From contig CAYTCI010000001.1 of NCBI GenBank assembly GCA_964436305.1, positions 48,037 through 112,036 on the forward strand: a stretch of 64,000 bases of DNA, written 5' to 3'. The number at the start of each line of letters is the position of its first letter. Position 1 is the stretch's first letter. The stretch comes from an uncultured Cytophagia bacterium (GTDB taxonomy: Bacteria; Zhuqueibacterota; Zhuqueibacteria; Residuimicrobiales; Residuimicrobiaceae). The notes under the pieces are model-generated. The model worked only from the letters and a program-made list of their open reading frames with translations, did no database searches and had not been told where the DNA came from. The translations under genes and the position numbers were made by a program. This document shows, in pieces, positions 33,733 through 64,000 of this stretch.

Positions 33733-33837
33733 GGGCACCTCTCTGATTGACAAATGATTTCCCCCGCGATGCACTCTTTAATCTATTACATTGGCCGGAA
33801 AAAAGCAATCCCTTTTGGCGGCAGCCGGGGCGGCATT

Positions 33838-34710: not shown

Positions 34711-34872
34711 ACTGTAATATCCCCATCCCGCGTTAAAAAATCAAGGGACAAAATCGCCACTCCTTCCCCTTGCGGTCGGCAGCCATGTGCGAGCGCCGCA
34801 GAAAAAGAGTGGTTTTTTTGCTCAAATTCTCCTATTTTATGGGCGTTGGTCACCTCCAATCCTGAGAGCGGC

Positions 34873-46010: not shown

Positions 46011-46039
46011 TTGACTTTGTGGGGGAAAAGTGGTAGACT
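46011..46039 (+). promoter_or_regulatory. sigma70-like promoter candidate with extended -10 (TTGACT - 17 nt - TGgTAGACT), about 280 nt upstream of the first TonB-dependent receptor
   Basis: TTGACT at 46011-46016, a 17-nt spacer ending in tgg, and TAGACT at 46034-46039. Confidence 0.45.
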
Positions 46040-46318
46040 ATAAACATGACCAGTTTTTCCGGCCGGTCATCAGGCCTACAATGAAAATCTGCTCTAAGCC
46101 ATGAATAACCGTCTAATTTCCTCTGCAGACGGGGGTAACCAGGATGTGCTCACCATGCCTCTGCCAGAGCAGCCTCCCTTTTCGAGAACCATCCAGCGGC
46201 ACGGGGGCCTGTTTTGCAGCGGTTCATCTCATCCCCGCCATCGCACCCCCTGCGGAGCGACCTTTCTTCAGTATACCCTCAACTCACGCTACGTTCCCAA
46301 ATAGAGGAGAAATCCGTT

Positions 46319-49300
46319 ATGAAGCTTCGTCGGCTACTGGTTTTGTTGCTGGTTCTCGGTTCCGTGACCGTTGTGCTGGCGGGAACGACCGGCAAGATCG
46401 CCGGCTCGATCACCGATTCCGCCACGGGTCAGGGGCTGCCCGGCGCCAATGTCCTGGTCAAGGGCACGAGCTATGGCGCGGTCACCGATCTGAACGGTCA
46501 CTATACCATCCTTAACGTGCCGCCGGGAACCTATGATCTGCAGATCTCCTTCATCGGTTTCAGCGCGGTCACGGTTACCGATGTCAAGGTGAACATTGAT
46601 CTGACCACCACCCAGAATGTCAAGCTGCGCGAGCAGTCGCTGGTGGGGGAGGAGATCACAGTGCGCGCCGAGCGGCCGGTGATCCAGAAGGACCTGGCCG
46701 CCAGCGAGCTGCAGGTGACCTCCGACCAGATCAAGAATCTGCCGATCTCTTCGGTGGGCGAGGCCATCGGCATCCAGGCCGGTGTCACCTCCGGCCTCTC
46801 GATCCGCGGCAGTGGCTCGGATGAAGCCCTCTTCATGGTCGACGGTATCTCGCTGCGCGATGAACGCGACAATACCCCGATCGCCAAAGTCCCCTTGAGC
46901 GCGGTCAAGCAGGTCTCGGTGCAGGCCGGCGGCTTCGGGGCCGAGTACAATAACGTCCGTTCGGGTCTGGTCAACGTCGTCACCCGCGAGGGCGATTCCC
47001 GCGGTCTGAGCGGCACCCTCACCCTGCGCACCAACTACCAGCCCTGGCAGTCCGGCAAAAGCTATCTGAAAAAGTATTTCGGCGATGTCTCCCCCTTCGG
47101 CGCCGACTCTTACTGGCTGCGTCCCTATCTGGATGATGCCGTCGCCTGGACGGGCACCAAAAACGGCGCCTGGGATCCCTACACCCGCCGGCAGTATCCG
47201 GAGTTTGACGGCTGGAATGCCGTCTCGCAGACCTCGCTGACCGATGACGACCCGACCAACGATGTTACCCCGGAAGCGGCCCAGACCATCTTCAAGTGGC
47301 AGCATCGCAAGCAGGGCGACATCACCAAGCCCGACTACCTGGCCGATTTCGGTTTCGGCGGCCCGGTGCCGCTCATCGGCAAAAAACTCGGCAACCTGCG
47401 CTTCTTCATCTCCGGGCGCCAGGAGAGCGAGCAGTACCTTTTTGAGATGTCCCGCAAGGATCTGCTCGACAAGAGCACCCTGCTGCGCCTCGGCGCCGAC
47501 ATCACCCCCTCGATGAAGCTCTCGCTGAGCGGTCTCTACGGCGAAACCTACGGCACCAACTACAGCCTCTCGGGCGGCACCTCAATCATGAGCAGCCCCG
47601 AGGACATCGCGGACCAGATGGCGTCGGCGGGATTCACGGTGCCGACGCGTATCTACACCGACATCTACTTCTCGCCGACTTCGCGGTTTTACTCGACCTT
47701 TTCCTCCAAATTGACCCACTTTATTAACAAGAGCACCTACTACGATCTTCAGCTCAAGTATTCACAGAAAAAATACTTCACCAATCCCGGACGCTTCCGT
47801 GAGGCCGCGGCCAAATACGAGATCGTTCCCGGCTATTTCGTCGATGAGGCCCCCTTCGGCTTCAGCACGACGCCGGTCTATGGCATCGACGGCGATTTTA
47901 TGATGGGCGGCGCCGTCGGCGTCTCCCGCGACTATAGCAAATACCGCACCTACAGCGGCAAGCTCGACATGGTCAGCCAGGTCAATCGCCGCAACCAGAT
48001 CAAGAGCGGTGTTGAGTTTGTCATGGACGACTATGAACTCTCCTACGGCGCCTACAATGCCTATTTGCCCGAGGGCAACTTTTGGAACGACGTCCAGCAG
48101 AAGCCGATCCGCGGCAACGTCTACCTGCTCGACAAGCTGGAATACGAGGGTTTCATCGCCACCGTCGGCGCCAACCTCGATTATTACACCCCCAACAGCC
48201 AGTGGTATAACGTGGCCACCTACGACCGCACCTTTTTCGGCCAGGGTTATTCCAGCGATCTCGATGCCAAATACAAGTCCAAGGATGTCAAACCCCGCTG
48301 GATCCTCAGCCCGCGTATGAGCATCTCGCATCCGATCACGGAGAATTCCAAGCTCTACTTCAACTATGGCCATTACCGCCAGATCCCGAACTCGGAGAGC
48401 CTCTACCGGGTTCAGCGCACCGGCATCAACGCCCTGAGCCGCTATGGCGATCCGACGGTGCCCTTTGAGAAAACGGTCGCCTACGAACTGGGTTACGACC
48501 ACGCGCTCTTTAACAATTTCCTGCTGCACATGGCCGCCTATTACAAGGATATCACCGACCAGGCCTATTCGGTCCGCTACATCAGCTACGACGGCAAGGT
48601 CAATTATTACAAGAACACCAACAACTCCTACGAGGATATCCGCGGCTTTGAAGTGGATCTCTCCCGGACGATGGGGCGGTGGCTGGTCGGCGACGTCAAC
48701 TATGAGTATCGCGTCGAGACCTCCGGTTATTTCGGCCGCGCCTACCAGTACGAGGATCCTGCAGCGCAGCGTGAATACAACAAGAGCAACCCGGTGCAGT
48801 CCAAACCGCGGCCGCGCCCGCGGGTCAAGGCTTACCTGGACTTCAATACCCCCTCCGATTTTGGCGCGATCCTTGGCGATTGGCACTTTACCACCACCGC
48901 GCAGTGGATCGCCGGCTACTGGATGACCTGGAATCCTCAGGACATCGCCGGCATCAGCCTCAATACCCAGTACAAGGATTGGTATGGCCTGAACCTCAAA
49001 CTCTCCAAGACCGTCGGCCTCGGCCCGGTCGAGCTCAAGGGCTTCGTTGACGTGTACAATGCCATCAACTACAAGTACCTCTCCGGCAGTGCCCACGTCG
49101 ACATTTACGATTACAACTATTACATGAAATCGCTCCATCTGCCTCAATCCGTTGCCCGTCATCTCGGCTACAACAACATCCCCGGCAGCGACCGGCCGGG
49201 CGATTACCGCAATGACGATGTCGAATTTGTGCCAATGGAATGGGTTGCCGATGTCAATACGATCACCGCGCCGAGCTCCCGGGCCGTCTATTATGAGGGG

Positions 49301-49474
49301 CCCTCGGGGCGCTATATGCAGTATGTCGACGGCCAGTGGCAGAAGGTCGCCGACGGCAAGATCAAGAAGATTCTTGACGACAAGGCCTACATCGATATGC
49401 CGAACCAGACCTTTCTCAATTTCTTCAATCCGCGGCAGATCTTCTTCGGCATCACGCTGAATTATAATTTTTAA
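46319..49474 (+). CDS. TonB-dependent outer-membrane receptor with N-terminal CarboxypepD_reg-like domain (paralog 1)
   Basis: AGGAGA RBS and signal peptide. GTTGKIAGSITDSATGQGLPGANVLVKGTSYGAVTDLNGHYTILNVPPGTYDL (CarboxypepD_reg). Plug: IRGSGSDEALFMVDGISLRDERDN...GGFGAEYNNVRSGLVNVVTREG. Long barrel ending in ...ITLNYNF. Confidence 0.88.
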   Translation: MKLRRLLVLLLVLGSVTVVLAGTTGKIAGSITDSATGQGLPGANVLVKGTSYGAVTDLNGHYTILNVPPGTYDLQISFIGFSAVTVTDVKVNIDLTTTQNVKLREQSLVGEEITVRAERPVIQKDLAASELQVTSDQIKNLPISSVGEAIGIQAGVTSGLSIRGSGSDEALFMVDGISLRDERDNTPIAKVPLSAVKQVSVQAGGFGAEYNNVRSGLVNVVTREGDSRGLSGTLTLRTNYQPWQSGKSYLKKYFGDVSPFGADSYWLRPYLDDAVAWTGTKNGAWDPYTRRQYPEFDGWNAVSQTSLTDDDPTNDVTPEAAQTIFKWQHRKQGDITKPDYLADFGFGGPVPLIGKKLGNLRFFISGRQESEQYLFEMSRKDLLDKSTLLRLGADITPSMKLSLSGLYGETYGTNYSLSGGTSIMSSPEDIADQMASAGFTVPTRIYTDIYFSPTSRFYSTFSSKLTHFINKSTYYDLQLKYSQKKYFTNPGRFREAAAKYEIVPGYFVDEAPFGFSTTPVYGIDGDFMMGGAVGVSRDYSKYRTYSGKLDMVSQVNRRNQIKSGVEFVMDDYELSYGAYNAYLPEGNFWNDVQQKPIRGNVYLLDKLEYEGFIATVGANLDYYTPNSQWYNVATYDRTFFGQGYSSDLDAKYKSKDVKPRWILSPRMSISHPITENSKLYFNYGHYRQIPNSESLYRVQRTGINALSRYGDPTVPFEKTVAYELGYDHALFNNFLLHMAAYYKDITDQAYSVRYISYDGKVNYYKNTNNSYEDIRGFEVDLSRTMGRWLVGDVNYEYRVETSGYFGRAYQYEDPAAQREYNKSNPVQSKPRPRPRVKAYLDFNTPSDFGAILGDWHFTTTAQWIAGYWMTWNPQDIAGISLNTQYKDWYGLNLKLSKTVGLGPVELKGFVDVYNAINYKYLSGSAHVDIYDYNYYMKSLHLPQSVARHLGYNNIPGSDRPGDYRNDDVEFVPMEWVADVNTITAPSSRAVYYEGPSGRYMQYVDGQWQKVADGKIKKILDDKAYIDMPNQTFLNFFNPRQIFFGITLNYNF

Positions 49475-49506: not shown

Positions 49507-51618
49507 ATGAGACGAAATGAATTGTGGATCTTGACCAGCCTTGTTGCCGCCCTGCTCCTGGCCATTCACCCGGTCCAGGCGGATGACACCAAATGGCTGG
49601 CTACCGGCATGCTGCACGACTGGTTCTCCAGCGCTGGTTACGAGCAGGAGGTCGGCCGGCGTCATCTGGTGGCCGATCAGCAGGATGGACTGCAGTGGCC
49701 CGCCTTGTTTGAATATCAGGACTGCAAGGCGGCCAAGGCGTTGTGGATCGGTGCGACCAATTATAACGACCCGATCGCCGGCAAGACCTACCCCTTCAAG
49801 GTGGTGCACGTCGGTCCGCGTGTGCTCAATGAGCTGAGCGAGTGGATGCCGTCGAAATTCAAGCTCTACGGCCGTCACGACAAGTCGACGGTTTATGTCG
49901 ACGGGACCTCCGGCGGCAAGCTCGATCTGCTCGATTTCGTGGATGAGGTCGATCCCAATCTGACCGCCGACCGCTACCTCTATACCGAGGCCAACACCCA
50001 GATGGGCATCACCGAAAAACGCAAGGTCTACCAGTTCGGCCAGCAGTATCACAATAACTATTTCATCCAGGAATACACCTTTGTCAACACCGGCATTATC
50101 GACACCAAGGGCACCAAGGTCAGCCAGACCTTAACCGGGGTGGTCTTTTTCTTCCAGCATCGCTACGCGACCTCCAAGGAGGCCTGTGTCTACGGCCTCT
50201 CCATCCTGCCGCAGTCGGCGGCCTGGGGACACAGCGAAATGAACGATACGATGTGGGTTTCGGATCAGGACGGGATCGAGAAGTATCTCTCGCTCTTTTC
50301 CTGGAAGGGCCAGCACTCCAAGGCGGGGTTTGACTGCATCGGCGCCCCGGATAACCGGGAGAACGGCGACGGCCACCTTACCGCGCCGCATTATGCCGGC
50401 TTTGCGGTCTTGCACGCCGACAAGAGCGCCTCGGATCGATCCAATGACAAGAGCCAGCCGACCACAACCCAGTACATGGGTTCGGATGTCACCATCACCT
50501 CGGGCAACGACCCCTACAACGAGCCCAAGATGACCCAGGAGTATGCCGCGATGACGGCGGGCCATCCGGCCAAGAGTCATGCGGATGGGGTGATCGCCTC
50601 GGGCCAGGCGGCCGATGAATATCTCGGGACGGTCGGCGGCTTCACCCAGTGCGCCGGCTTCGGGCCCTACACCATGGCGCCGGGCGACAGCGTCCACATC
50701 GTCCTGGCCGAAGGCATTGCCGGTCTCGACCGCAAGGCCTGCTACACCATCGGCGCCAAATGGTTCAAGGAAGTGGGCCCCTATGTACTGCCGAACGGTT
50801 CGACGACCACCGACCGGGATGAGTACAAGGATAAATGGGTCTACACCGGCCGCGACTCCCTGATCAAGACCTTTCAGCGTGCTGCCGCCAACTACAAGGC
50901 CAACTACAAGATCCCGGTTCCCCCGCCGGCACCGAGCTTTTTCGAGGTCGCTGGTGGCGGCGACCGTATCCAGCTCAAATGGTCGAACAACGCCGAAAGC
51001 TGGCCGGGGTTTGCCGGATACAAGATCTTCCGGGCCATCCACACCCCCGATACCCTCTTTGAAGAGCTGTTTGAATGCGGCAAGGGCACCAAAAACCCCC
51101 AGGTTGTCAACAGCTATGATGACCTGACGGCCATCCGTGGTTTTGACTATTACTACTACATCGTCTCCTTTGACGATGGCAGCAGCAACAAGACCATGGC
51201 CAATCCCGGCGGTCCGCTCTACAGCAGTATCTTTTACGCCAAGACCATCAATCCGACCAACCTCAAGCGCAAGGCAGGTGAGGTTCTGGATGACAGCCTC
51301 GACGCCAGTGGCCATATTGTCAAGACCGGCATCCGTATCGTTCCCAATCCCTACAGCATTCGTGCGCGGGATTTGCAGTTCGGCGACAGCGGGCCGGACC
51401 GTATCATGTTCTACAACATCCCGGGCATTTGCACGATCAAGATCTATACCGAGCGCGGTGACCTGATCCATACCATTGAGCATACCAACGGCAGCGGCGA
51501 TGAAGCCTGGAATTCCATCACCTCCTCGTCCCAGACGGTCGTCAGTGGCGTCTATATCGTCGTTTTCGAGACGCCCAGTGGCCAGAAAGCCGTTCGCAAA
51601 TTTGTCGTCATCCGTTAA
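49507..51618 (+). CDS. secreted ~700-aa protein of unrecognised family with FN3-like module and T9SS-like C-terminal domain (TBDR partner, paralog 1)
   Basis: Signal peptide. Paralogous to 59848-62001 with shared blocks QQYH.NYFI, DCIGAPD, LPNGSTTT..DEYKD.WVY.G.DS, GGD.I...W...GYK.(F/Y)RA, and tail VPNPY.IR.R.LQ...IMF.NIPG.CTI.IYTERGDLI.TI.H.NGSGDE.WNSITS...VVSGVYIV.FE...RKFV.IR. Confidence 0.72.
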   Translation: MRRNELWILTSLVAALLLAIHPVQADDTKWLATGMLHDWFSSAGYEQEVGRRHLVADQQDGLQWPALFEYQDCKAAKALWIGATNYNDPIAGKTYPFKVVHVGPRVLNELSEWMPSKFKLYGRHDKSTVYVDGTSGGKLDLLDFVDEVDPNLTADRYLYTEANTQMGITEKRKVYQFGQQYHNNYFIQEYTFVNTGIIDTKGTKVSQTLTGVVFFFQHRYATSKEACVYGLSILPQSAAWGHSEMNDTMWVSDQDGIEKYLSLFSWKGQHSKAGFDCIGAPDNRENGDGHLTAPHYAGFAVLHADKSASDRSNDKSQPTTTQYMGSDVTITSGNDPYNEPKMTQEYAAMTAGHPAKSHADGVIASGQAADEYLGTVGGFTQCAGFGPYTMAPGDSVHIVLAEGIAGLDRKACYTIGAKWFKEVGPYVLPNGSTTTDRDEYKDKWVYTGRDSLIKTFQRAAANYKANYKIPVPPPAPSFFEVAGGGDRIQLKWSNNAESWPGFAGYKIFRAIHTPDTLFEELFECGKGTKNPQVVNSYDDLTAIRGFDYYYYIVSFDDGSSNKTMANPGGPLYSSIFYAKTINPTNLKRKAGEVLDDSLDASGHIVKTGIRIVPNPYSIRARDLQFGDSGPDRIMFYNIPGICTIKIYTERGDLIHTIEHTNGSGDEAWNSITSSSQTVVSGVYIVVFETPSGQKAVRKFVVIR

Positions 51619-51658
51619 GGGCTATAGACACGCAATCCCAATAAAGGAGTAATGGATT

Positions 51659-52666: not shown

Positions 52667-52711
52667 TTCACTGAACCTTGATTCGTTGATCCTTAGATGA
52701 GGACGTTTCAT

Positions 52712-53935
52712 ATGGGAAAGAGATTTATCATTATACAAGCGATCCTCCTGGTGGCCGCCTTGATGCTCGTGCTGGCGGGGTGTGACAGTAATGACTATCC
52801 GCCCAGCCTCTATGATCCCAATGCCAAGACCAGTGCTGCGGCGGTCATCAGCGCCGTGGATCCCGCCAGTGTCGCCCTCTCGGGCGTGACCATGATCACC
52901 TTCACGGGGAGCAACTTTTCGACGGTGAAGGAGGACAACATTGTTTACTTCAACGCCGAGAAAGGCACGGTGCTGGAGGCCTCGTCGACGATGCTGAAGG
53001 TTCGCGCGCCGATCTACGTCTCCGACTCGATCGCCATCCGCATCGCGGTCAAGAATTCCGAGCTCTTCAGCAACAAGTGGACCTACAAGCTTGAAGCAGC
53101 GCAGGAGAATCTCCTCACCTTGACGCCGGCGGAGATCCCCTACGGTATTGCGACGGATGCGGCCGGTAATGTCTACGCCTCGCTGATCGTCAGCAACGCC
53201 GGTGCCGGCGTCAAGATCGTCACCCCGGGTGCCGAGAAATATGTCGACTATGCCCCCAAGGGCGGCGAGACCTTCTGGACGGCCATGAAGATGGGTCCGG
53301 GCAATGTGCTCTATTGCGCGCGTAATCTCAAGGGCATCTTCACCATTGCCGCGGCCGCAGCCAAGCCCGCGACCTTCGCCTCTTCCGGTCTGGGCAACAT
53401 CTATGACCTGGATTTTGACGCCAGCCACAACCTCTGGGGCGTGGGTAACAACACCGACATTTATCGCGTCAAGCCCGACAAATCGATCACCAAATTCCCC
53501 TTCACTGCCAACCTCAAATCGGTGCGCGTCTACAACGGCTATCTCTACGTTGCCGGTAAAAAAGACAACGCCGACAAGGTCTGGCGCTTCGCGATCAACG
53601 GCGAGACGCTCGGCGCGGCTGAGGAGTATTTTGATTTTTCGGCCAAGGTCGGCGGCGGTGCGAGCGTCTATTGCATCACCTTCTCGGCGGACGGCTATAT
53701 GTACGTTGGCACCGATGCCGCCGAGGCCATCTTTATCGTCAGCCCCACCGGCTCCTTCGAGCCCCTCTATCCCGGGCAGTTCTTCCCCAAGACCCTGCTC
53801 TTCGCCTGGGGCCCGGGCGCCAGTCTCTATATGACGCGCGAACAGGTGCTGGAAGGCGACCAGATCAAGTACGCCCAGACGATCATTCGCATCAATACGC
53901 AAAAGGAGAGTGCGCCCTACTACGGTCTGCAATGA
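52712..53935 (+). CDS. lipoprotein with IPT/TIG domain and beta-propeller (NHL/SMP-30-like) body
   Basis: Lipobox VLAGC. TIG-like ISAVDPASVALSGVTMITFTGSNFS...VYFNAEKGTVLEASSTMLKVRAP. Repeated blade-like segments (GIATDAAGNVYAS, NIYDLDFDASHNLWGV, GYLYVAG, ITFSADGYMYVGT). Confidence 0.68.
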   Translation: MGKRFIIIQAILLVAALMLVLAGCDSNDYPPSLYDPNAKTSAAAVISAVDPASVALSGVTMITFTGSNFSTVKEDNIVYFNAEKGTVLEASSTMLKVRAPIYVSDSIAIRIAVKNSELFSNKWTYKLEAAQENLLTLTPAEIPYGIATDAAGNVYASLIVSNAGAGVKIVTPGAEKYVDYAPKGGETFWTAMKMGPGNVLYCARNLKGIFTIAAAAAKPATFASSGLGNIYDLDFDASHNLWGVGNNTDIYRVKPDKSITKFPFTANLKSVRVYNGYLYVAGKKDNADKVWRFAINGETLGAAEEYFDFSAKVGGGASVYCITFSADGYMYVGTDAAEAIFIVSPTGSFEPLYPGQFFPKTLLFAWGPGASLYMTREQVLEGDQIKYAQTIIRINTQKESAPYYGLQ

Positions 53936-54103
53936 CCGTTGAACAGCGCCGCTTTTCCTGCGGACAAAAGCATTCCACCATAACTGGAAGGCGCAGGCAT
54001 CCTTCCCGGCAAAGAATTTACCTGGAAAGGAGGGTGATCGGCAGATTTTACGCTGTATCCAGCTTTGAGTAATTACGTAACGTTGTTCACAAAGGAGGTT
54101 AAC

Positions 54104-56521
54104 ATGAAGAAAATGTTAGTGTTCGCCATCGCACTGGTGCTCCTGACCGCGATGGCCGCATCGGCTGGCTGGGAATTCGTCCGGAATTTCCCGAACAATG
54201 ACTTCAAGCCGGTCGGTGGTATGGGTTCGCACGGCCTTATCGTTGACCGCGAAGGCAAGGTCTGGCTGCAAATGTACGGCGCCACCGGCTCGATCACCAA
54301 GGCCAACGGCACCACCGCCACCACCCGGCAGATCTTCTGCTTCTATCCGGATGGTACTCCCACCGCCTGGAGCGGCAACAACCTGATCACCGGCTTTGGC
54401 CAGACCGATACCCTCTACAATTCCCACCGCGGTCTGGGCATGGACCATGATGGCAACATCCTCTGGACGGCCTATCCCTACATCTACCGCTTCGATTACA
54501 AAACCGGCGATCTGCTCCAGCGCATCGTCCCGCAGCAACTGACCTCGTACTGCGCCCCGGTGGCGGATGTCGATGGCGATATCTATCTGGGCTACGTCCT
54601 CCCGGGTAAGCCGATCGAGACCTACGGCGCCGATGGCTCCTACCTCGGCAATGTGAGTGATTCGCAGGACGGCTACGGCCGTACCATGGCGGTCTCGGAT
54701 GACGGCCTCAGTGTCTACGTCCCGAGATACGATAAAAAGTTCCTGCTGCGCTACACCCGTCCCGACAAGTTCAGCCCCTTCGCGGTTCCCGACACGCTCT
54801 GCAAGGGCGCGGCCACCGCTTCGATGAACTGGAACTATGCCACCAGCAAGCTGTGGATCGACGGCGGCAACAACGACGAAGCCCCCTCCGGCGGCCGCTA
54901 TCTGTCCATGACCTGGTACGAGATCGATCCGGTCACCTTCACCCCGACCGACAGCATCAGATGGCAGACCAACGATCCGGCCCAGCCGGCTGGCGAAAAG
55001 CCGCGTGGTATTTCCTTCACGGTCACCGGCGACACGGCCTACGTCTCCTGCTTCGGCGCGGATTACTATGTTCCGGCGCAGATGTTCGTCAAGAGTGCGG
55101 GCGGCGATGTCAATGTCACCTTCCGCATCAACATGGGCATCCAGCAGCAGTATGGCAATTTCAATCCGGCCACCGACAAGGTCGTCATCCGCGGCAGCTT
55201 TAATGGCTGGGCGGGCGATGCCGATGAGTGCCTGCCGACGGCTGAAGCAGGCGTCTATGCGCTGACCAAGACCTTCCCGGCCGCTCAGGTCGGCACCGAG
55301 GTCGAGTTCAAGTACGTCATGATGCCCGGCGATCGCTGGGAGAGCGTCGACAACCGCAAACTGACCATTCCTGGCGTCTCCAAGAGCCTCGATGTGGTCT
55401 ATTACAACAACGTCAGTGTCTACACCGAGACCAAGACCGCCAATGTCACTTTCCAGGCGGATGTGACCGACATGCTGGCCAAGGGCTTCACCCCCGGGAC
55501 CGACGAGATCCTCGTCCTCGGCGGCTTCAACGGCTGGGCCTACAACGATGAGTGGATCGCCCAGCCCGACCTGGTGGTCCCGACCCTCTACACGGTCACC
55601 CATGCCATTACCGACGTTGTCGGCGCCTCCCAGGGCTGGAAATGGCGTGGACGCCCCGAGGGCAATTTTGCTGACGGTGGCTGGGAAGGCGGCGACAACC
55701 ATACCTTCACCTTCACCGGTGAGGATCTGGTGCTGGATGCCTTCAAGCCGAATGTGGCTCCTGCCGGCAAGAAACTGGCGCAGGATGTCACGGTGACCTT
55801 CAAGGTCAATGTGGCCGGCGCGAAGGATTATTTCAACAAAATGGCCTTCCCGACGGTTGACAAGGTCGTCCTCAACGGCGATTTCGCTCCGCTGGGCACC
55901 GGTGGCTGGGCGGGTTGGAGTGTCTCCGATATCGGCGGCACCCTGATCACGATGTACGATGACGCCACCAACGGCGATGCGACCGCTGGCGACGGCATCT
56001 GGACCACCCAGGTGAAATTCGCGGCTGGCACCATTGCCACCCACTATTACAAGTACGGCATCTACTCCGTCGGCTATACCGACACCCTCAACGCCGGTAC
56101 CATCCCGATGGACAACGAAGCCGGAATGTCGATGAACCATCTGATCACCATCCCCGACGCCAATCCGGTTTATGTCAATGCCACCGACAAGTTTGGCTCG
56201 CAGTGGGTCAAGGTCGACAGAATTCCGACCAGCGGTTTGCCTGCAGAATTCACCCTGAATGCCAACTATCCGAACCCCTTCAACCCGACCACCTCGATCA
56301 CCTATGATCTGCCGATGAGAAGCCGTATCCGTCTGACGGTCTTCAATGCGATGGGTCAAGTGGTGGCCAATCTGGTTGATGGCGAACAGAATGCCGGCAG
56401 CTACCGGGTCTCCTGGAACGGCACCAACCTGGACGGCAGCATTGCCCCGAGCGGCATCTATTTCTACCGCCTCGAAGGCGATGGTTTTGCCAAAACCATG
56501 AAAATGACCCTGATGAAGTAG
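54104..56521 (+). CDS. secreted protein: N-terminal propeller-like region, three CBM-like beta-sandwich repeats, T9SS type-A C-terminal sorting domain
   Basis: AAGGAGG RBS and signal peptide MKKMLVFAIALVLLTAMAASA. Three repeats with the (V/T)F..(N/D)...D.(V/I)(V/L)(I/L).G.FNGW signature. C-terminus YPNPFNPTTSITYDLP...GIYFYRLEGDGFAKTMKMTLMK. Confidence 0.72.
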   Translation: MKKMLVFAIALVLLTAMAASAGWEFVRNFPNNDFKPVGGMGSHGLIVDREGKVWLQMYGATGSITKANGTTATTRQIFCFYPDGTPTAWSGNNLITGFGQTDTLYNSHRGLGMDHDGNILWTAYPYIYRFDYKTGDLLQRIVPQQLTSYCAPVADVDGDIYLGYVLPGKPIETYGADGSYLGNVSDSQDGYGRTMAVSDDGLSVYVPRYDKKFLLRYTRPDKFSPFAVPDTLCKGAATASMNWNYATSKLWIDGGNNDEAPSGGRYLSMTWYEIDPVTFTPTDSIRWQTNDPAQPAGEKPRGISFTVTGDTAYVSCFGADYYVPAQMFVKSAGGDVNVTFRINMGIQQQYGNFNPATDKVVIRGSFNGWAGDADECLPTAEAGVYALTKTFPAAQVGTEVEFKYVMMPGDRWESVDNRKLTIPGVSKSLDVVYYNNVSVYTETKTANVTFQADVTDMLAKGFTPGTDEILVLGGFNGWAYNDEWIAQPDLVVPTLYTVTHAITDVVGASQGWKWRGRPEGNFADGGWEGGDNHTFTFTGEDLVLDAFKPNVAPAGKKLAQDVTVTFKVNVAGAKDYFNKMAFPTVDKVVLNGDFAPLGTGGWAGWSVSDIGGTLITMYDDATNGDATAGDGIWTTQVKFAAGTIATHYYKYGIYSVGYTDTLNAGTIPMDNEAGMSMNHLITIPDANPVYVNATDKFGSQWVKVDRIPTSGLPAEFTLNANYPNPFNPTTSITYDLPMRSRIRLTVFNAMGQVVANLVDGEQNAGSYRVSWNGTNLDGSIAPSGIYFYRLEGDGFAKTMKMTLMK
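55109..56068 (+). repeat. three tandem ~90-aa protein-level repeats (about 55109-55375, 55438-55720, 55784-56068) inside the 818-aa T9SS cargo
   Basis: VNVTFRINM...DKVVIRGSFNGWAGD / ANVTFQADV...DEILVLGGFNGWAYN / VTVTFKVNV...DKVVLNGDFAPLGTGGWAGW. Reminiscent of starch/glycogen-binding CBM20/25/48-type modules. Boundaries are approximate. Confidence 0.5.
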
Positions 56522-56536
56522 TTCTCTGATCGAACT

Positions 56537-56570
56537 AGCCTGTGCGCCGAAAGGCGCACAGGCTTTTCTT
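56537..56570 (+). terminator. Rho-independent terminator after the 818-aa gene
   Basis: A 12-bp stem, agcctgtgcgcc (56537-56548) with ggcgcacaggct (56553-56564), GAAA tetraloop, then tttctttg. Confidence 0.8.
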
Positions 56571-56790: not shown

Positions 56791-59700
56791 ATGCGACGAG
56801 CGCTGCTTCTTGTTCTGATCTGTCTCACAACGGGGACACTCCTTGCCGGCACGACCGGCAAGATCACCGGAGTCGTCACCGATGCCGAGAACGGGGAGAG
56901 TTTACCGGGGGTTAACGTCAGCCTCCCGGGCAGCGGGTTCGGCGGGATCACCAATTTGAATGGCCGCTTTCTCATCCTCAATGTCCCTCCGGGAACCTAC
57001 GATCTCAAATTCAGCCTGATGGGCTATGCCACCGTGACCATGCGGGCGGTGCGTGTGGAGATCGATTTGACCACCCAGGCCGACGTGCAGCTCAAGGCGG
57101 AAACCCTGCAAGGGGAGGAGGTTGTCGTTGTCGCCCATCGTCCCCTGGTGGTGCGCGATATCTCCAACAGCCAGATGAGCATCGAGGCGGCCAGGATCGA
57201 GAGCATGCCGGTCGAAACCGTGCGTCAGGTGCTCAGCCTCCAGGCGGGCATTCAATCCGGCCGTGAGGGCATCCTCGTCCGCGGCAGCAGCGCCGGGCAA
57301 ACAGCCTTTATGATGGACGGCGTCTCCCTCAATGACGAACGCTCCAACATTCCCTACACCGCGGTTGGCTTCAGCGCGGTCAAGGAGATCAGCGTCCAGA
57401 CCGGCGGCTTCAACGCCGAATATGGCAATCTCCGCGCCGGCCTGGTCAATGTCATCACCAAGGAGGGGGAATCGGGACAGTACAACGGCGCCCTGATCCT
57501 GCGCTACAGCCCGCCCGCCGCCAAGCATTTCGGTTCCTCGATCTATGACCCCTACTCCTTCTTCAACCGTGTCTATATGGATCCGGCGGTCTGTTATACC
57601 GGCACCAACAACGGCGCCTGGGATGAATTCACCCGCCGGCAGTACCCCAGTTTCGACGGCTGGAACACCTATTCGGAAAAGACCCTGCAAGACAAGGATC
57701 CCAGCAATGATCTGACGCCGGAAGGCGCACGGCAGCTCTATGAATGGCAGCACCGCCGGCAGGGGGATATCACCAAACCGGACTATATCATCGATGGCAC
57801 CTTTGGCGGGCCGGTGCCGCTGGTCGGCTCCCGCCTCGGCCACCTGCGCTTTCTCGCTACCCATGTCCGCGAACAGGATATGTTTATCTATCCCTTGTCA
57901 CGCGATAACTATGGCGAAAATTATACCCGTCTGAAACTCACCAGCGACATCAGCCCCAAAATGAAGCTGATCCTCTCCGGCCTCTATGGTGAGGTCCACT
58001 CCGTTTCACCCTATAACTGGACCACCTTGCCCAACGGCCGCGTGCTGCGCGACCAGAGCGAGATCGCCGATCTGCTCACCGCCACCGAAGGCCGGGCTGT
58101 CCTCTACATGCCCGGGTACTACAGCCCGAGCTCGGTCTATCGCCAGGTCTATAGCGCCCAGCTCACCCATATGCTCAGCACCCGGACCTATTACGATCTT
58201 TCTCTGCAGTATAATTACAGCCGTAACAATACCTACAAAACCGCTGACCGCGACACCGCCCGCATCTATCAGCCGGTTCCGGGATATTACGTCGACGAAT
58301 TGCCCTACGGCTATATGGGTTACAGCGCCCCGAGCATCAACGGCGACCGGATGGGGGCCTGGATGAATCTTGGCCGGGACAAGAGCATCAACTCGACCGC
58401 TCACTTCAAGCTGGATTTGACCAGCCAGGTCAACCATCGCAACCAGGTCAAGACCGGCGTGCAGGTCGTCTACAACGACTATAATATCCGTTCCTTCACC
58501 GAGAGCCTCGCCCTCCCCGATGGCTGGAGCCGCACGATGTTCTACCACGTGTTCCCCTATCGGGTCGGGGCCTACCTGCAGGACAAGCTCGAGTTCCAGG
58601 GATTCGTCGCCAATCTCGGCTTGCGCATGGATTACAGCGATCCCAATGGCAGCTATTTGGTCCTGGGCGACTTTGACGAAAACCTGGGCAAGGGATTGGG
58701 CAAGCAGCTGTTGCAGAGGGTCAGCAAGGCGGATGCCAAATCGACGCTGCTCTGGAGCCCGCGCCTTGGGGTTTCGCACCCGATCACTGCCAACTCCAAA
58801 CTCTATTTCAACTACGGCCATTTCACCCAGGAACCCTCCTCTGCCAACCGGTTCATGCTGCAGCGCGAGCAGAACGGCTCGGTGACCTACCTCGGCAATC
58901 CCAATCTGGCGCCGGAGAAAACGATCCAGTATGAACTGGGCTATTCGCAGAATTTGCTCGACCTCTTCCTGTTGAATATCGCCGCCTATTACAAGGATAT
59001 TACCAATCAGCCGGGCTGGATCAACTATATCAATGTCAACAGCACGGTGAATTACAGCAAGGCAGCCAACAACAACTATGCGGATATCCGCGGACTCGAG
59101 CTGACCCTGAACAAGACCGCGGGCCGCTGGATCTCCGGTTTCATCAACTATACCTACGATGTCCGTACCAGCGGCTATTTCGGCCTGCTGAGCTATTACC
59201 AGGACCCGGCGCGGCAGCGGGACTATCTGGCGCTGAATACCTACCAGTCCAAGCCGCGGCCGCAGCCCTACGCCCGCTTCAATCTGGATCTGCACACGCC
59301 GCGGGATTGGGGCGGCAAGCTCTTCAGCGATATCAACTTTAACTGCCTCGGCGGCTGGAGTGCCGGCGCCTACGATACCTACAATCCCAACGATCTGGCG
59401 GGTATTCAGGATAACGTCCGCTGGAAAGATACCTATTACCTCGACATGCGTCTCTCCAAGCAGGTGAGCGCCGCCGGTCTGCAGGTCCAGCTCTATGTCG
59501 ATGCCAGCAATATCTTCAATTTCAAGTTCCTCAACTATGCCGGCTTTTCCGACAGCTATGATTACGACTTTTACATGCAGTCTCTCTGCTTTTCCTGGGA
59601 GAAGGGCGATAACAAGGGGAGCGACCGCATCGGCGCGTATCGCCCCGCCGACGTCGCCTACGATCCCCTGGAAGCTAATCCTGGGAACAATCCGGCGATT

Positions 59701-59817
59701 TCCGCCCGCAATGCCAAACGCAAGGAGAACAAGTCCTATATCGACAATCCTAATATCGAGGCCCTGACCTTTCTTAATCCCCGCGATATCACCTTTGGTC
59801 TAAAGCTGAATTTTTAA
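56791..59817 (+). CDS. TonB-dependent outer-membrane receptor with CarboxypepD_reg-like domain (paralog 2)
   Basis: AGTTGKITGVVTDAENGESLPGVNVSLPGSGFGGITNLNGRFLILNVPPGTYDL. Plug: VRGSSAGQTAFMMDGVSLNDERSN...GGFNAEYGNLRAGLVNVITKEG. Barrel ends in ...FGLKLNF. Confidence 0.88.
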   Translation: MRRALLLVLICLTTGTLLAGTTGKITGVVTDAENGESLPGVNVSLPGSGFGGITNLNGRFLILNVPPGTYDLKFSLMGYATVTMRAVRVEIDLTTQADVQLKAETLQGEEVVVVAHRPLVVRDISNSQMSIEAARIESMPVETVRQVLSLQAGIQSGREGILVRGSSAGQTAFMMDGVSLNDERSNIPYTAVGFSAVKEISVQTGGFNAEYGNLRAGLVNVITKEGESGQYNGALILRYSPPAAKHFGSSIYDPYSFFNRVYMDPAVCYTGTNNGAWDEFTRRQYPSFDGWNTYSEKTLQDKDPSNDLTPEGARQLYEWQHRRQGDITKPDYIIDGTFGGPVPLVGSRLGHLRFLATHVREQDMFIYPLSRDNYGENYTRLKLTSDISPKMKLILSGLYGEVHSVSPYNWTTLPNGRVLRDQSEIADLLTATEGRAVLYMPGYYSPSSVYRQVYSAQLTHMLSTRTYYDLSLQYNYSRNNTYKTADRDTARIYQPVPGYYVDELPYGYMGYSAPSINGDRMGAWMNLGRDKSINSTAHFKLDLTSQVNHRNQVKTGVQVVYNDYNIRSFTESLALPDGWSRTMFYHVFPYRVGAYLQDKLEFQGFVANLGLRMDYSDPNGSYLVLGDFDENLGKGLGKQLLQRVSKADAKSTLLWSPRLGVSHPITANSKLYFNYGHFTQEPSSANRFMLQREQNGSVTYLGNPNLAPEKTIQYELGYSQNLLDLFLLNIAAYYKDITNQPGWINYINVNSTVNYSKAANNNYADIRGLELTLNKTAGRWISGFINYTYDVRTSGYFGLLSYYQDPARQRDYLALNTYQSKPRPQPYARFNLDLHTPRDWGGKLFSDINFNCLGGWSAGAYDTYNPNDLAGIQDNVRWKDTYYLDMRLSKQVSAAGLQVQLYVDASNIFNFKFLNYAGFSDSYDYDFYMQSLCFSWEKGDNKGSDRIGAYRPADVAYDPLEANPGNNPAISARNAKRKENKSYIDNPNIEALTFLNPRDITFGLKLNF

Positions 59818-59847: not shown

Positions 59848-62001
59848 ATGAACAAGAATTCCAGATTTCTGTCGGTCATCGTCGGGGTGCTGATCTCTTT
59901 AACACTGGTGCAAATGGCCTCGGGACAACTGCTGGGTACAGAACGGCGCTATGTCCGTGTCGGCCCGCTGCAGAGCTTTTTCCAGTCGTATGGCCGTGAG
60001 CGCGCCTTTAACAACTCCTATTATGAAGGGCTGATGTGGCCGGCCGACTATTCCTACCAGGACAATGCTGTCATCAACTGTATCTGGATGGGGTGCCGGG
60101 AGTTCCGGAACAAGAACGACAAATATTACGACAAGTATGCGTTCCCGATGGCCACCGACGAAAATGTCGGCATGGCGATCTTTCCCCTCGAGATCAAGCA
60201 GATCGCCAAATTTACACCGCCCTCGATCTATGTGGATGGCAGTGATATAACCGCGATCTATGCCGGCGATGTGGACGAGATCAATCCCGACCAGGCCGCC
60301 GACCGCGTCATCATCAATCGCATCAATACCTCGATGGGACTCTCGATGACGCGGGAGATCTATTATTTTTCCCAGCAATATCACGACAATTATTTTATCA
60401 AGGTTTTCACCTTCACCAACACCGGCAATACCGATTTCGACGACGAGATCGAGTTGACCACGCCGCTCAAGGCGGTGCGGATCAGTACCGCGGTGCGCTA
60501 CAGCGTGTGCCGGGAGGGGGCGATGATGACCAGCGGCACCCAGCAGTGGGGTCAGCAGAGCTGGGTGACCCGGCGCGGCGAGAACTATGCTGCGCATGCC
60601 GGTGAAACCCTCACCGAAGCGAACGGACCGGTGCAGTGGTTGCGGTGTAATTTTGCCTGGGCCGGGCAGAAAAAGGAGATCGCCTGGGATTGCATCGGGG
60701 CTCCGGATGTCACAGGGGACGGCCGCCTGGCTGCGCCGCAGCATGCCGGCAGCGTCATCCTGCATGTTGACAAGAGCGGGAGCGACAAGTCCGATGATCC
60801 AGCCCAGCCCTTGCTCAATGGCTGGCACGGCGCGGATGCGCAGAGCTTTTTCTCGACCGGGCTGATGACCGACAACGATCTGCCACTGATGGCCAAGCTC
60901 TATGATATGACGGCCGGTGCTGCCCTCGGCGGGATCGGCGGCAACGAACGCTTTGACGAAAAATATCAGGCCTCCTCGCCCGACGCCTTTACCGTCCACG
61001 GGGACGCTGGCGGGACCCACATGTGGGTCTGTTACGGCCCCTGGGATCTGGCGCATGGTGAAAGCATCACCATCGTCGAGGCCGAGGGGGTGGCCGGCTT
61101 GTCGCGCGAGCAGTGCGAGCGAATCGGCCGCCGCTGGAAGAAGGCCTACAACAATCCCAGCGATGCGGGGCCCTTTACGCTGCCCAACGGCTCGACCACG
61201 ACCAGCAAGGATGAATACAAGGACCAATGGGTCTATAGTGGCAAGGATTCGATCCTGCTCACCTTCAGCCGGGCCAAACGGAATTTCGATTCCGGTTTCA
61301 GGATTCCCCAGCCGCCGATGCCGCCCTCCTTTGTGGAGGTCAAATCGGGTGGCGACATGATCAGCGTCTCCTGGGGTCCGAGCAGCTCCGAGAGCGCCGG
61401 CGGTTTCGGCGGCTACAAGGTCTATCGCGCCATCGGCCGGCCCGACACCCTCTACACGGAGATCTACAGCGGCGGCCCCGGGACCTATGCCTATAATGAC
61501 AAGCAGGCTGTACGCGGGCAAGCCTACTACTATTATGTGGTCGCCGTCGATGACGGCTCGAACAATAGTGAAGGCCGCCATAATCCGGCCGGTCCCCTGC
61601 ACAGCAGCAAGTTCTATGGCCTGGCGAGCCAGCCTGCCTATCTCTCACGCCAGGCCGGCCAAAAGCTCCAGGATATTCGCGTCGTCCCCAATCCCTACGA
61701 TATCCGGTCGCGAAAACTGCAGTATGTGGGGGAGGATGACAAGATCATGTTCCTCAACATCCCCGGTCACTGCACCATCCGGATCTATACCGAGCGGGGC
61801 GATCTGATCGACACGATCCACCACGAGAATGGCAGCGGCGATGAGCGCTGGAATTCGATCACCTCTGCACGCCAGGTGGTGGTCTCCGGCGTCTATATTG
61901 TTCACTTTGAGGTTACCCAGGATTACCGGGACAGCGTTACCGACCAGCTCCTTTACAGCAAGGGCGAAGGCACGTTCCGCAAATTCGTGATCATTCGCTG
62001 A
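59848..62001 (+). CDS. secreted ~700-aa protein of unrecognised family with FN3-like module and T9SS-like C-terminal domain (TBDR partner, paralog 2)
   Basis: Signal peptide. Colinear with 49507-51618 (see the shared blocks listed there). Starts 30 nt after TBDR paralog 2. Confidence 0.72.
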   Translation: MNKNSRFLSVIVGVLISLTLVQMASGQLLGTERRYVRVGPLQSFFQSYGRERAFNNSYYEGLMWPADYSYQDNAVINCIWMGCREFRNKNDKYYDKYAFPMATDENVGMAIFPLEIKQIAKFTPPSIYVDGSDITAIYAGDVDEINPDQAADRVIINRINTSMGLSMTREIYYFSQQYHDNYFIKVFTFTNTGNTDFDDEIELTTPLKAVRISTAVRYSVCREGAMMTSGTQQWGQQSWVTRRGENYAAHAGETLTEANGPVQWLRCNFAWAGQKKEIAWDCIGAPDVTGDGRLAAPQHAGSVILHVDKSGSDKSDDPAQPLLNGWHGADAQSFFSTGLMTDNDLPLMAKLYDMTAGAALGGIGGNERFDEKYQASSPDAFTVHGDAGGTHMWVCYGPWDLAHGESITIVEAEGVAGLSREQCERIGRRWKKAYNNPSDAGPFTLPNGSTTTSKDEYKDQWVYSGKDSILLTFSRAKRNFDSGFRIPQPPMPPSFVEVKSGGDMISVSWGPSSSESAGGFGGYKVYRAIGRPDTLYTEIYSGGPGTYAYNDKQAVRGQAYYYYVVAVDDGSNNSEGRHNPAGPLHSSKFYGLASQPAYLSRQAGQKLQDIRVVPNPYDIRSRKLQYVGEDDKIMFLNIPGHCTIRIYTERGDLIDTIHHENGSGDERWNSITSARQVVVSGVYIVHFEVTQDYRDSVTDQLLYSKGEGTFRKFVIIR

Positions 62002-62065: not shown

Positions 62066-64000
62066 ATGGCAAGACTGTTAAAATGGAGCCTGATTCTTGT
62101 ACTCGGCCTTTCATGCGGGCTGTTCGCCGGGACGACCGGCAAATTGACCGGCACAGTGACGGATGCCGAGAGTGGAGGGCCTCTCCCCGGGGTCAACGTC
62201 GTCATCGAGGGGACAAGTTATGGCGCCGTGACCAATATCGAGGGGCGCTATACCATCATCAACCTCCCGCCCGGCACCTATGATCTCCGCATTTCGATGC
62301 TGGGCTATGCCACCTACCAGGTGCGCCAGGTGCGCGTTGAGATCGACCGCACCACCGAGGTCAACCGCGCCCTGAAAAGCCAGGCGATCGAGGGTGAGAA
62401 CGTGGTCGTCGTCGCCCAGCGCCCGGTGGTCAAGCGGGATATCTCCAGCAGCCAGACCAATCTTGAGGCGGCCGCGATCGAGAACATGCCCGTACAGACC
62501 GTGCGCGAAGCCCTCGTCCTTCAGGCCGGCATCCAGAAGGGCAGCGAGGGCTTGTTGATCCGCGGTGGCGCGGCCAATCAGACCGGCATGCTGCTCGACG
62601 GTCTGTCGCTCAACGATGAGCGTTCCAACATCCCCTATGCGGCGCTCTCGATGAGTGCGGTCAAGGAGATCCAGATCCAGACCGGCGGATTCAATGCCGA
62701 ATATGGTAATATCCGTTCCGGCCTGGTCAACGTCATCACCAAGGAGGGCGATGCCTCCCGTTACAATTTCACGGCCAATCTCAATTACAGCCCCCCCGCG
62801 AAAAAACATTTCGGCCGCTCGCTCTATGATCCGATGTCTTATTTTAATCGGGTTTACATGGATCCGACGGTCTGTTTCTCCGGCACCAACAACGGCGCCT
62901 GGGATGACTATACCCGCAGCCAGTATCCCAATTTTGACGGCTGGCAGTCGGTGGCTGACAAGACTCTGCAGGATGCCAATCCTGATAACGACCTCACAGC
63001 CGTGGGCGCGCAGCGCCTCTATGAGTGGCAGCACCGCCGCCAAGGCGATATCACCAAGCCCGATTACGTAGCGGATCTTGGCTTCGGCGGCCCGGTGCCC
63101 CTGCTCAATAAATTCGGCCGCACCCGTTTCTTCCTCAGCCACTTCCGCGAACAGGAGATGTTCGTCTTTCCGCTCTCCCGCGACGGCTATACCGAGAATT
63201 ATACCCAGATCAAACTGACCTCGGACCTCACCAAAAACATGAAGGTGATGTACACCGGGCTGTACGGTGAACTCTACTCGGTATCCCCCTACAACTGGAC
63301 CACCGCGCCGACCGGATATGTCCTTCGCGATCAGGGCGAGATCGCCGATCTGCTCAACAGCACCGACGGCCTCGCCGTCCTCTATGTGCCGGCCTACTAC
63401 AGCCCGACAGCGATCTATCGTCAGATGCACGGCCTCAAGCTGACCCATATGCTCTCACCGAAGACCTTTTATGAAGTCACGGCGGAGTATCAATACAACC
63501 GCACCAATACCTATCAGATGAGCCTGCGGGATACCGCCAAAACGAACCAGATCCTGCCCGGCTATTTTGTCGACGAAATGCCCTACGGCTACTGGGGCTA
63601 TGGCACCAACAGCATCAACGGCGACCGCATGGGCGGCTGGATGAATCTGGGCCGCGACAAAAGCATCAATGCCACCACCAATCTCAAGGTTGACCTGACC
63701 AGCCAGATCGCCGCGCGCCATCAGATCAAGACCGGCGCCCAGGTGGTCTATAACGATTATAATATCAACTCCGGGACGGTCAGCCCCTCGATGGACACCT
63801 GGAACCGGTCGATGACCTACCGGGTTTTCCCCTTCCGCATTGGCGCCTACCTGCAGGACAAGATCGAGTATCAGGGTTTTGTCGCCAATCTCGGCTTGCG
63901 CATGGATCAGGTCAGTCCCAACGGCGACTATCTGGTCCTCGATGCCTATGATGTCAATCTGGGCGCGGGCTATGGCAGGGAGATCACCACCAACGTGGTC
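62066..64000 (+). CDS. TonB-dependent outer-membrane receptor with CarboxypepD_reg-like domain (paralog 3), 3'-truncated by the window end; not listed in the supplied ORF track
   Basis: Hand translation from the ATG at 62066: MARLLKWSLILVLGLSCGLFAGTTGKLTGTVTDAESGGPLPGVNVVIEGTSYGAVTNIEGRYTIINLPPGTYDL...IRGGAANQTGMLLDGLSLNDERSN...LYEWQHRRQGDITKPDY...GAGYGREITTNVV. The frame is open to nt 64000 and colinear with paralog 2. Confidence 0.85.
   Translation, partial: MARLLKWSLILVLGLSCGLFAGTTGKLTGTVTDAESGGPLPGVNVVIEGTSYGAVTNIEGRYTIINLPPGTYDLRISMLGYATYQVRQVRVEIDRTTEVNRALKSQAIEGENVVVVAQRPVVKRDISSSQTNLEAAAIENMPVQTVREALVLQAGIQKGSEGLLIRGGAANQTGMLLDGLSLNDERSNIPYAALSMSAVKEIQIQTGGFNAEYGNIRSGLVNVITKEGDASRYNFTANLNYSPPAKKHFGRSLYDPMSYFNRVYMDPTVCFSGTNNGAWDDYTRSQYPNFDGWQSVADKTLQDANPDNDLTAVGAQRLYEWQHRRQGDITKPDYVADLGFGGPVPLLNKFGRTRFFLSHFREQEMFVFPLSRDGYTENYTQIKLTSDLTKNMKVMYTGLYGELYSVSPYNWTTAPTGYVLRDQGEIADLLNSTDGLAVLYVPAYYSPTAIYRQMHGLKLTHMLSPKTFYEVTAEYQYNRTNTYQMSLRDTAKTNQILPGYFVDEMPYGYWGYGTNSINGDRMGGWMNLGRDKSINATTNLKVDLTSQIAARHQIKTGAQVVYNDYNINSGTVSPSMDTWNRSMTYRVFPFRIGAYLQDKIEYQGFVANLGLRMDQVSPNGDYLVLDAYDVNLGAGYGREITTNVV

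Follow-up and report, generated by a model that had tools for sequence, protein, structure and literature searches.

Two paralogous, presumably secreted proteins, X1 and X2, are encoded in the 64,000-nucleotide stretch of contig CAYTCI010000001.1 analysed here (positions 48,037 to 112,036; hereafter the window), which derives from an uncultured bacterium of the Zhuqueibacterota. Each is encoded directly behind a TonB-dependent receptor, and it is this link with the upstream receptor which is the key to the likely function of the X family. On balance, X1 and X2 appear to be extracellular substrate-capture partners of the upstream receptor, exported through a type IX secretion system (T9SS) and anchored to an outer-membrane barrel. 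We are evenly divided over a wider proposition, namely that a third class of T9SS C-terminal domains (CTDs), each with a private barrel of the PorV/PorQ family, mounts an unclassified all-beta partner on TonB-dependent transporters, and that the resulting lipoprotein- and SusD-independent capture and import machine is the principal one of its sort in KSB1/Zhuqueibacterota, Calditrichota, Ignavibacteria, Marinimicrobia and WOR-3. The novelty lies in the combination of a CTD-plus-barrel anchor with a TonB-transporter partner; each of the two kinds is known, and the N-terminal domain family is unclassified.

In the proposed mechanism, X would be exported by Sec, using a signal peptide without a lipid anchor, and would cross the outer membrane through the T9SS, steered by its variant CTD. 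Rather than being exchanged for anionic lipopolysaccharide (LPS), this tail would stay on a dedicated barrel of the PorV/PorQ family, the gene for which belongs to the same locus, and X would thus remain at the surface beside the transporter. The N-terminal beta-supersandwich and the fibronectin type III (FN3) domain would catch the substrate, most likely a glycan, and pass it to the receptor, which is the role of SusD and the SusE/F-type surface glycan-binding proteins in the Bacteroidota. The mounting of three partners on one barrel would explain tails which are ~70 % identical on bodies which have drifted to ~36 %. The receptors, partners and barrel of the window are encoded as follows:

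46214..49474, + strand: TonB-dependent receptor 1, with CarboxypepD_reg extension, plug and barrel (CarbopepD_reg_2 2e-19, Plug 1.4e-9)
49507..51618, + strand: partner protein X1 (P0001), 703 amino acids, with a signal peptide (residues 1-25), beta-supersandwich (26-465), FN3 domain (about 466-600) and variant CTD tail (about 606-703)
about 51322-51615, + strand: tail of X1, the C-terminal ~95 amino acids
51659..52666, + strand: PorV/PorQ-family outer-membrane barrel, 335 amino acids (NF033709 PorV_fam, 202.7 bits against a cut-off of 90)
56791..59817, + strand: TonB-dependent receptor 2 (TonB_dep_Rec_b-barrel 2e-23, CarbopepD_reg_2 5.9e-20, Plug 1.7e-8)
59848..62001, + strand: partner protein X2 (P0002), 717 amino acids, architecture as X1, tail at about nucleotides 61684-61998
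62066..64000, + strand: TonB-dependent receptor 3, which continues past the window end, with a further partner, X3, next in the genome

The receptors are ~1000 residues in length and are separated from their partners by only 32 nucleotides (X1) and 30 nucleotides (X2). Both X1 and X2 start with a Sec-type signal peptide lacking a lipobox cysteine. A preliminary description of the window, drawn up from the sequence alone, had singled out the two as colinear paralogs, and both reading frames are present, with 39 % identity in a full-length BLASTP comparison (E 1e-158). While the pair itself stands, the count of two does not, since a third close copy (X3; G000:C1:113161-115323) is located behind the third receptor, ~1.1 kb beyond the window end, and a fourth (X4) occurs on contig C2 of the same genome. 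All the motifs quoted in the preliminary description were recovered, including QQYHNNYFI/QQYHDNYFI, FVNTG/FTNTG, DCIGAPD, LPNGSTTT..DEYKD.WVY.G.DS, the FN3-like block and the tail. Conservation among the paralogs X1, X2 and X3 climbs from the N- to the C-terminus, with 35-37 % identity in the N-terminal domain (X1 versus X2/X3), 48-57 % in the FN3 region and 66-72 % in the tail (last ~95 residues), which is the best conserved part. Gene conversion as the source of the tail similarity was largely rejected, since two of the three tail comparisons (X1-X2 and X2-X3) show almost saturated four-fold sites, with identities of 0.45-0.50 versus a random expectation of 0.42, and selection on the protein is thus indicated. 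The value of 0.68 for X1-X3, on 28 sites only, makes slight conversion between these two tails possible. When the family tree is rooted at its midpoint, the deepest split separates X1 and the C2 copy from X2/X3, with local support of 1.0 and 0.59 for its two sides, and the duplication is therefore probably old.

The tail had been described as resembling, yet differing from, canonical T9SS tails, and both halves of this statement are borne out. A hidden Markov model (HMM) was built from the last ~100 residues and searched against the open reading frames (ORFs) of the own genome (4.36 Mb, 90 % complete), where 22 ORFs were matched. Comparison of these 22 tails with 30 canonical type A CTDs of the same genome using hhalign gave a probability of 98.5 % (E 3e-15) over 79 columns, which span the entire Ig-like domain, while a ~10-residue insertion directly after the PNPY strand separates the variant tail from the type A CTDs. 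Scores on the established models remain below the cut-offs, with X1 reaching 20.7 bits on TIGR04183 (cut-off 23; E 3e-4) and its tail 15.9 bits on CHU_C (cut-off 27; E 0.014). In the NCBIfam scan of X1 and X2, no TIGR04183 match was found for X2, and the tail matched the PorZ C-terminus weakly (E 8.8e-5). When 17 of the 22 tails were scanned singly against the NCBIfam and Pfam models, the following matches were obtained:

PorZ C-terminus (NF052228): 17/17 tails, best E 3.9e-11
PorU C-terminus (NF033707): 15/17 tails
TIGR04183, type A: 14/17 tails
TIGR04131, type B: 0/17 tails
Pfam FlgD_ig: 9/17 tails
Pfam CHU_C: 9/17 tails, weak
Pfam Por_Secre_tail (PF18962): 2/17 tails at E<0.1

The hhalign homology and the PorZ, PorU and TIGR04183 matches thus identify the tail as a genuine T9SS-type CTD which, as judged from these comparisons, forms a subclass of its own that is akin to type A, with the PorZ and PorU CTDs as its nearest relatives. 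A type B identity was rejected, as no tail matches TIGR04131 and CHU_C stays below its cut-off. The preliminary description had left a choice between a second CTD class and a plain Ig-like domain, of which the former is the better option, given that the tail marks out a well-delimited group of 22 proteins linked with receptors and barrels. The two window proteins with which the tail had been contrasted do carry canonical tails, with the product of 54065-56521 matching Por_Secre_tail and TIGR04183 and that of 33838-34710 (- strand) matching FlgD_ig. The T9SS core genes SprA (855 bits) and PorU sortase (877 bits) are encoded in the own genome, together with a single near-orthologous PorV (230 bits) and ~45 proteins with canonical CTDs.

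The tail is coupled to receptors and barrels throughout the own genome. A receptor is encoded on the same strand within 2.4 kb for 17/22 tail-bearing ORFs (thirteen within ~100 nucleotides), three further tail-bearing ORFs lie at contig ends, and a PorV-family barrel is found within 1.4 kb for 18/22 (seventeen within 100 nucleotides). In all, 34 receptors of this type are encoded. SusD (PF07980, PF14322) had no match in this 90 %-complete genome, and a SusD identity for X itself was rejected on the basis of the lack of a Pfam match, the all-beta model and the signal peptide without cysteine. An HMM of the N-terminal domain matched only 9/22 tail-bearing ORFs, while most others share, by eye, a core motif (..Y.W....D.I...Y...N.G) and the FN3 block, the X family thus being the compact end of a larger partner superfamily (~480-1400 residues). 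Genes for a GH106 rhamnosidase, GH43, a pectinesterase (CE8) with a type A CTD, and GH65-C-like and GH5-like proteins adjoin other cassettes in this genome, which places the superfamily in settings resembling polysaccharide utilisation loci (PULs). A second whole core cassette, comprising receptor, partner X4, PorV-like barrel and TIG lipoprotein and followed by a type A CTD protein, is located at G000:C2:83688-91546 (- strand). One tail-bearer stands apart from the others, namely a 1418-amino-acid protein (G000:C18:23329-27585, - strand) with a subtilase-like N-terminus, FG-GAP/VCBS-like repeats and the weakest tail score (E 6e-6), which has no adjacent receptor and whose closest PorV-like barrel is ~4.6 kb away.

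The barrel encoded behind X1 is proposed to be the anchor or shuttle for the tails. Although it is well above the cut-off for the PorV family, it falls short of the equivalog cut-offs for PorV (79.9 versus 250 bits) and PorQ (82.7 versus 220 bits), and likewise that for PorV2. It passes Pfam PorP_SprF (PF11751; 30.2 versus 22.3 bits), with the PorV/PorQ-family score being far better. The same data could be accommodated if the tail were an ordinary cleavable type A signal, with X being cut by PorU and either attached to LPS or released, and the barrels being private shuttles or unrelated, while X still serves the receptor. Homology of the tail with type A CTDs, including the fourteen TIGR04183 matches, the PorU sortase encoded in the genome and the lack of own barrels for X2 and X3 all speak for this reading. 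We nevertheless consider it unlikely, as the ~45 canonical CTD proteins are apparently served by one orthologue-like PorV and the 22 variant tails are accompanied by ~20 extra barrels, or nearly one each. Furthermore, the best tail matches are the CTDs of PorZ and PorU, the two which are known to be barrel-bound (PMC12365241), and strong tail conservation among partners which share one barrel would be unexpected for a disposable signal.

The N-terminal ~450 residues, in which nothing had been recognised in the preliminary description, remained without a match in Pfam, NCBIfam and PDB sequence-profile searches. No Pfam or NCBIfam model is matched by X1 or X2 above any cut-off, with all weak matches falling within the tail, and a search of the complete PDB sequence set with a 36-member family profile retrieved FN3 domains only (E 0.04). 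The latter match (3mpc), a weak one, together with FN3 tandems retrieved by Foldseek (probability 1.00) and the predicted model, agrees with the FN3 segment proposed earlier. A confident AlphaFold2 model of full-length X1, based on the 36-member alignment (predicted local distance difference test, pLDDT, 85; predicted template modelling score, pTM, 0.80), comprises a large, mainly beta N-terminal domain from residue 26 to ~465 with a long helix at its end, an FN3 sandwich with strands at residues 478-556, a flexible linker and a seven-strand C-terminal sandwich at residues 610-701. Stretches of low confidence occur at 616-624 and 626-629, within the tail-specific insertion, and at 673-676. Foldseek comparison of the N-terminal domain modelled alone (pLDDT 84, pTM 0.88) against the PDB returned beta-supersandwich domains only. 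These belong to the non-catalytic N-terminal domains of GH94 cellobiose/cellodextrin phosphorylases, to GH65, GH116 and glucosidase-II-type enzymes, and to the periplasmic P1 domain of YidC. The scores are low, with E down to 1e-7, template modelling (TM) scores on the query of 0.32-0.37 and 8-11 % identity, while TM reaches 0.50 when normalised on the 258-residue YidC P1. The fold comparison thus yields no confident family for this domain but a loose beta-supersandwich likeness (TM on the query up to 0.37), and the predicted structure suggests only a fold-level resemblance to carbohydrate-associated accessory domains, not family membership. Membership of GH94 or GH65 was rejected, as only the accessory N-terminal domain fold aligns, loosely, and the model contains no (alpha/alpha)6 catalytic barrel.

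X might also be an enzyme itself, belonging to a new supersandwich glycoside hydrolase, lyase or epimerase family, that processes substrate at the surface before import. The Foldseek matches are to carbohydrate-active enzymes (CAZymes), the galactose-mutarotase-like supersandwich can be catalytic, the invariant charged or polar residues of the family include E46, D72, R156, R172, N184, N194, R219 and E402, and the cross-phylum identity of 50-60 % is unusually high. An enzymatic role is nonetheless improbable in our estimation, since what is matched in the GH94, GH65 and GH116 proteins is the non-catalytic N-terminal domain, and the P1 domain of YidC is matched as well. In addition, neither an (alpha/alpha)6 nor a TIM catalytic domain is present in the X model, and the Pfam and NCBIfam scans gave no match to a CAZy-type family.

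A survey of the distribution of the family in other genomes found it spread over KSB1, Calditrichota, Ignavibacteria, Marinimicrobia and WOR-3. A search of 5.8 billion proteins brought up at least 681 relatives in KSB1, Calditrichota, WOR-3, Fidelibacterota/Marinimicrobia and Delongbacteria, and not one of these carries a Pfam domain. Their source annotation is only 'fibronectin' or 'hypothetical', and no Pfam or NCBIfam model exists for the family. Among the GTDB species-representative genomes, at least 555 relatives/loci were found, which add the Melioribacteraceae and Ignavibacteriales. The gene order is near-constant, consisting of receptor, partner, in some cases a small ORF, PorV-like barrel, TIG protein, receptor and partner, and identity within the family across phyla is 50-60 %. 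Complete partner genes were counted in 80 loci, which represent at least five candidate phyla (KSB1, Calditrichota, Ignavibacteria, Marinimicrobia and WOR-3); a receptor ends within 300 nucleotides upstream of the partner for 71/75 assessable genes, and a barrel starts within 1 kb downstream for 58/78 genes. The idea that barrel presence tracks two deep clades of the family was rejected, as there is no clean split. The small ORF, of ~190-230 amino acids and without a Pfam match, is located between the partner and the PorV-like barrel in loci of Calditrichota, Fidelibacterota and WOR-3 (L001:10166-10747, L003:10140-10829 and L005:10165-10761); it is missing in the window, where the gap at 51618-51659 is only 40 nucleotides. 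In a sample of 61 genomes from the phylum of the window, the family occurs in 48/61 and SusD in 25/61 (one to five matches each), and a strict 'SusD-less phylum' idea was rejected for this reason, while SusD was not found in any searched genome of the window's own order. The literature search returned papers on the T9SS and on SusCD, none of which describes the receptor-partner-barrel cassette or the X family.

The near-constant gene order, the identity of 50-60 % across phyla and the lack of conserved CAZymes are more reminiscent of housekeeping genes than of a variable PUL, and the receptors score below the SusC/RagA cut-off. Instead of a nutrient importer, one could accordingly see in the receptor-like barrel, X, PorV-like barrel and TIG lipoprotein a conserved machine serving the envelope, adhesion or export, of the kind that has been proposed for Oar-type receptors. 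This is very unlikely in our view, considering that distant superfamily members occur in PUL-like contexts with GH106, GH43, CE8 and GH5-like genes, and that the receptor plug domains are typical of TonB-driven import.

Several observations weigh against substrate capture by a barrel-anchored X. The receptors are not bona fide SusC/RagA proteins, with 76-82 bits on TIGR04056 against a cut-off of 368 (82 bits for receptor 1, over its N-terminal part only). Neither X2 nor X3 is accompanied by a separate barrel gene, and both share a locus with the barrel of X1. Partial Mantel correlations for tail-barrel and tail-receptor pairing (r 0.26 and 0.31) are similar and both nominally significant, and do not set the one pairing apart from the other; all parts of the cassette co-diverge. 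The similarity of the N-terminal domain to carbohydrate-associated supersandwiches is loose, with a root-mean-square deviation of ~10 A or more at the TM scores given above. No CAZyme belongs to the conserved core of the X1-type cassette in related loci, and a glycan ligand for X1 and X2 is thus a guess. Likewise, the family is not a strict replacement for SusD, since both coexist in some genomes of the phylum. Finally, what the analysis establishes is the domain anatomy, the homology of the tail with T9SS CTDs, the T9SS core genes, the close linkage of receptor, partner and barrel genes and the lack of a SusD match, while the surface location of X, the retention of its tail on the barrel, its contact with the receptor and its ligand are points which we infer.

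The remaining features of the locus are as follows:

46011..46039, + strand: sigma-70-like promoter match upstream of receptor 1 (TTGACT-17-TAGACT with TG, 9/12; consensus match only)
52697..53935, + strand: IPT/TIG lipoprotein (Pfam TIG 1.2e-11; lipobox LAGC, then DSND)
54065..56521, + strand: 818-amino-acid protein whose repeats are CBM-like and whose CTD is of the canonical type A (TIGR04183 34.7 bits, cut-off 23; CBM20/CBM53 weak)
56537..56564, + strand: strong terminator-like hairpin closing the first transcription unit (12-bp stem with nine GC pairs, then a T-run)

In its longest form, the ORF of receptor 1 begins at a TTG codon (46214), but the true start is probably the ATG at 46319, which would put the first residue of CarboxypepD_reg at ~27, in line with receptors 2 and 3 (residues 25 and 27). 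The TIG lipoprotein is kept in most related loci, and as its LAGC-DSND sequence, with acidic residues directly behind the cysteine, resembles the surface-export signal of Bacteroidota lipoproteins, the cassette may combine lipid-anchored with T9SS-anchored surface proteins. Downstream of X3, the genome encodes a protein with GHL10, Big_5 and type A CTD domains, a glycosyltransferase of family GT9, and a histidine kinase together with a sigma-54 response regulator. The first of these (PF02638 + Big_5 + type A CTD; 1054 amino acids; L097:31-3195 = G000:C1:115330-118494) stands at the end of the locus; GHL10, a putative glycosidase family about which little has been established, may offer a clue to the substrate. 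Elsewhere in the window, KsgA/RrnaAD is confined to residues 381-628 of a 637-amino-acid + strand ORF (33754-35667), the first ~320 codons of which are antisense to the 290-amino-acid Lamin-tail-domain and FlgD_ig/CTD gene at 33838-34710 (- strand). Given this overlap, the real ksgA start is probably near 34.9 kb.

Outer-membrane capture of glycans and nutrients is understood almost wholly from SusC/SusD of the Bacteroidota. The sister phyla of the Fibrobacterota-Chlorobiota-Bacteroidota (FCB) group abound in sediments, in deep-ocean waters and in hot springs, and possess many SusC-like receptors with few or no SusD. If the proposed role of X is correct, the X family would provide a concrete and testable answer to how substrates are captured in these sister phyla, and T9SS biology would be extended, beyond the Bacteroidota, to a new subclass of CTDs served by private barrels. 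The combination of a receptor, tailed partner and PorV-like barrel would furthermore serve as a genomic marker for utilisation loci, which escape today's PUL predictors owing to the reliance of the latter on SusD.

The closest parallels to the proposed anchor are found in the T9SS itself. In the T9SS attachment complex, PorV serves as the anchor of PorU, and PorQ as that of PorZ (PMC12365241). As in the PorZ-PorQ and PorU-PorV pairs of Porphyromonas gingivalis, X has a type-A-like CTD and a barrel of the PorV/PorQ family beside it. In contrast to these pairs, the putative X-barrel pair occurs ~20 times per genome and is wired to TonB-dependent receptors, and the passenger domains of X are unrelated to the beta-propellers of PorZ or the sortase of PorU. 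For cargo with type B CTDs, the anchor or shuttle is a cognate PorP/SprF-like barrel whose gene is linked to that of the cargo (PMC9143113, PMC12618676). These two precedents lend support to the T9SS passage and the tail retention proposed for X. The X locus shares with such type B systems (SprB-SprF, PG1035-PorP and the Flavobacterium johnsoniae pairs) the linkage of a cargo gene to a barrel gene, but differs in that the X tail has no TIGR04131 match and the barrel is of the PorV/PorQ family and not clearly PorP/SprF. The GH94, GH65 and GH116 N-terminal domains and YidC P1 are the best and sole consistent structural matches to X residues 26-465, although, unlike these GH enzymes, X has no attached catalytic domain. 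Finally, the X gene resembles that of SusD/RagB in being placed directly downstream of a receptor with a CarboxypepD_reg extension, with distant members in PUL-like neighbourhoods, and a role in substrate capture is presumed to be common to X and the SusD and SusE/F-type proteins. Unlike SusD/RagB, X is all-beta rather than tetratricopeptide repeat (TPR)-like helical and is no lipoprotein, and its anchor would be a T9SS tail held by a barrel.

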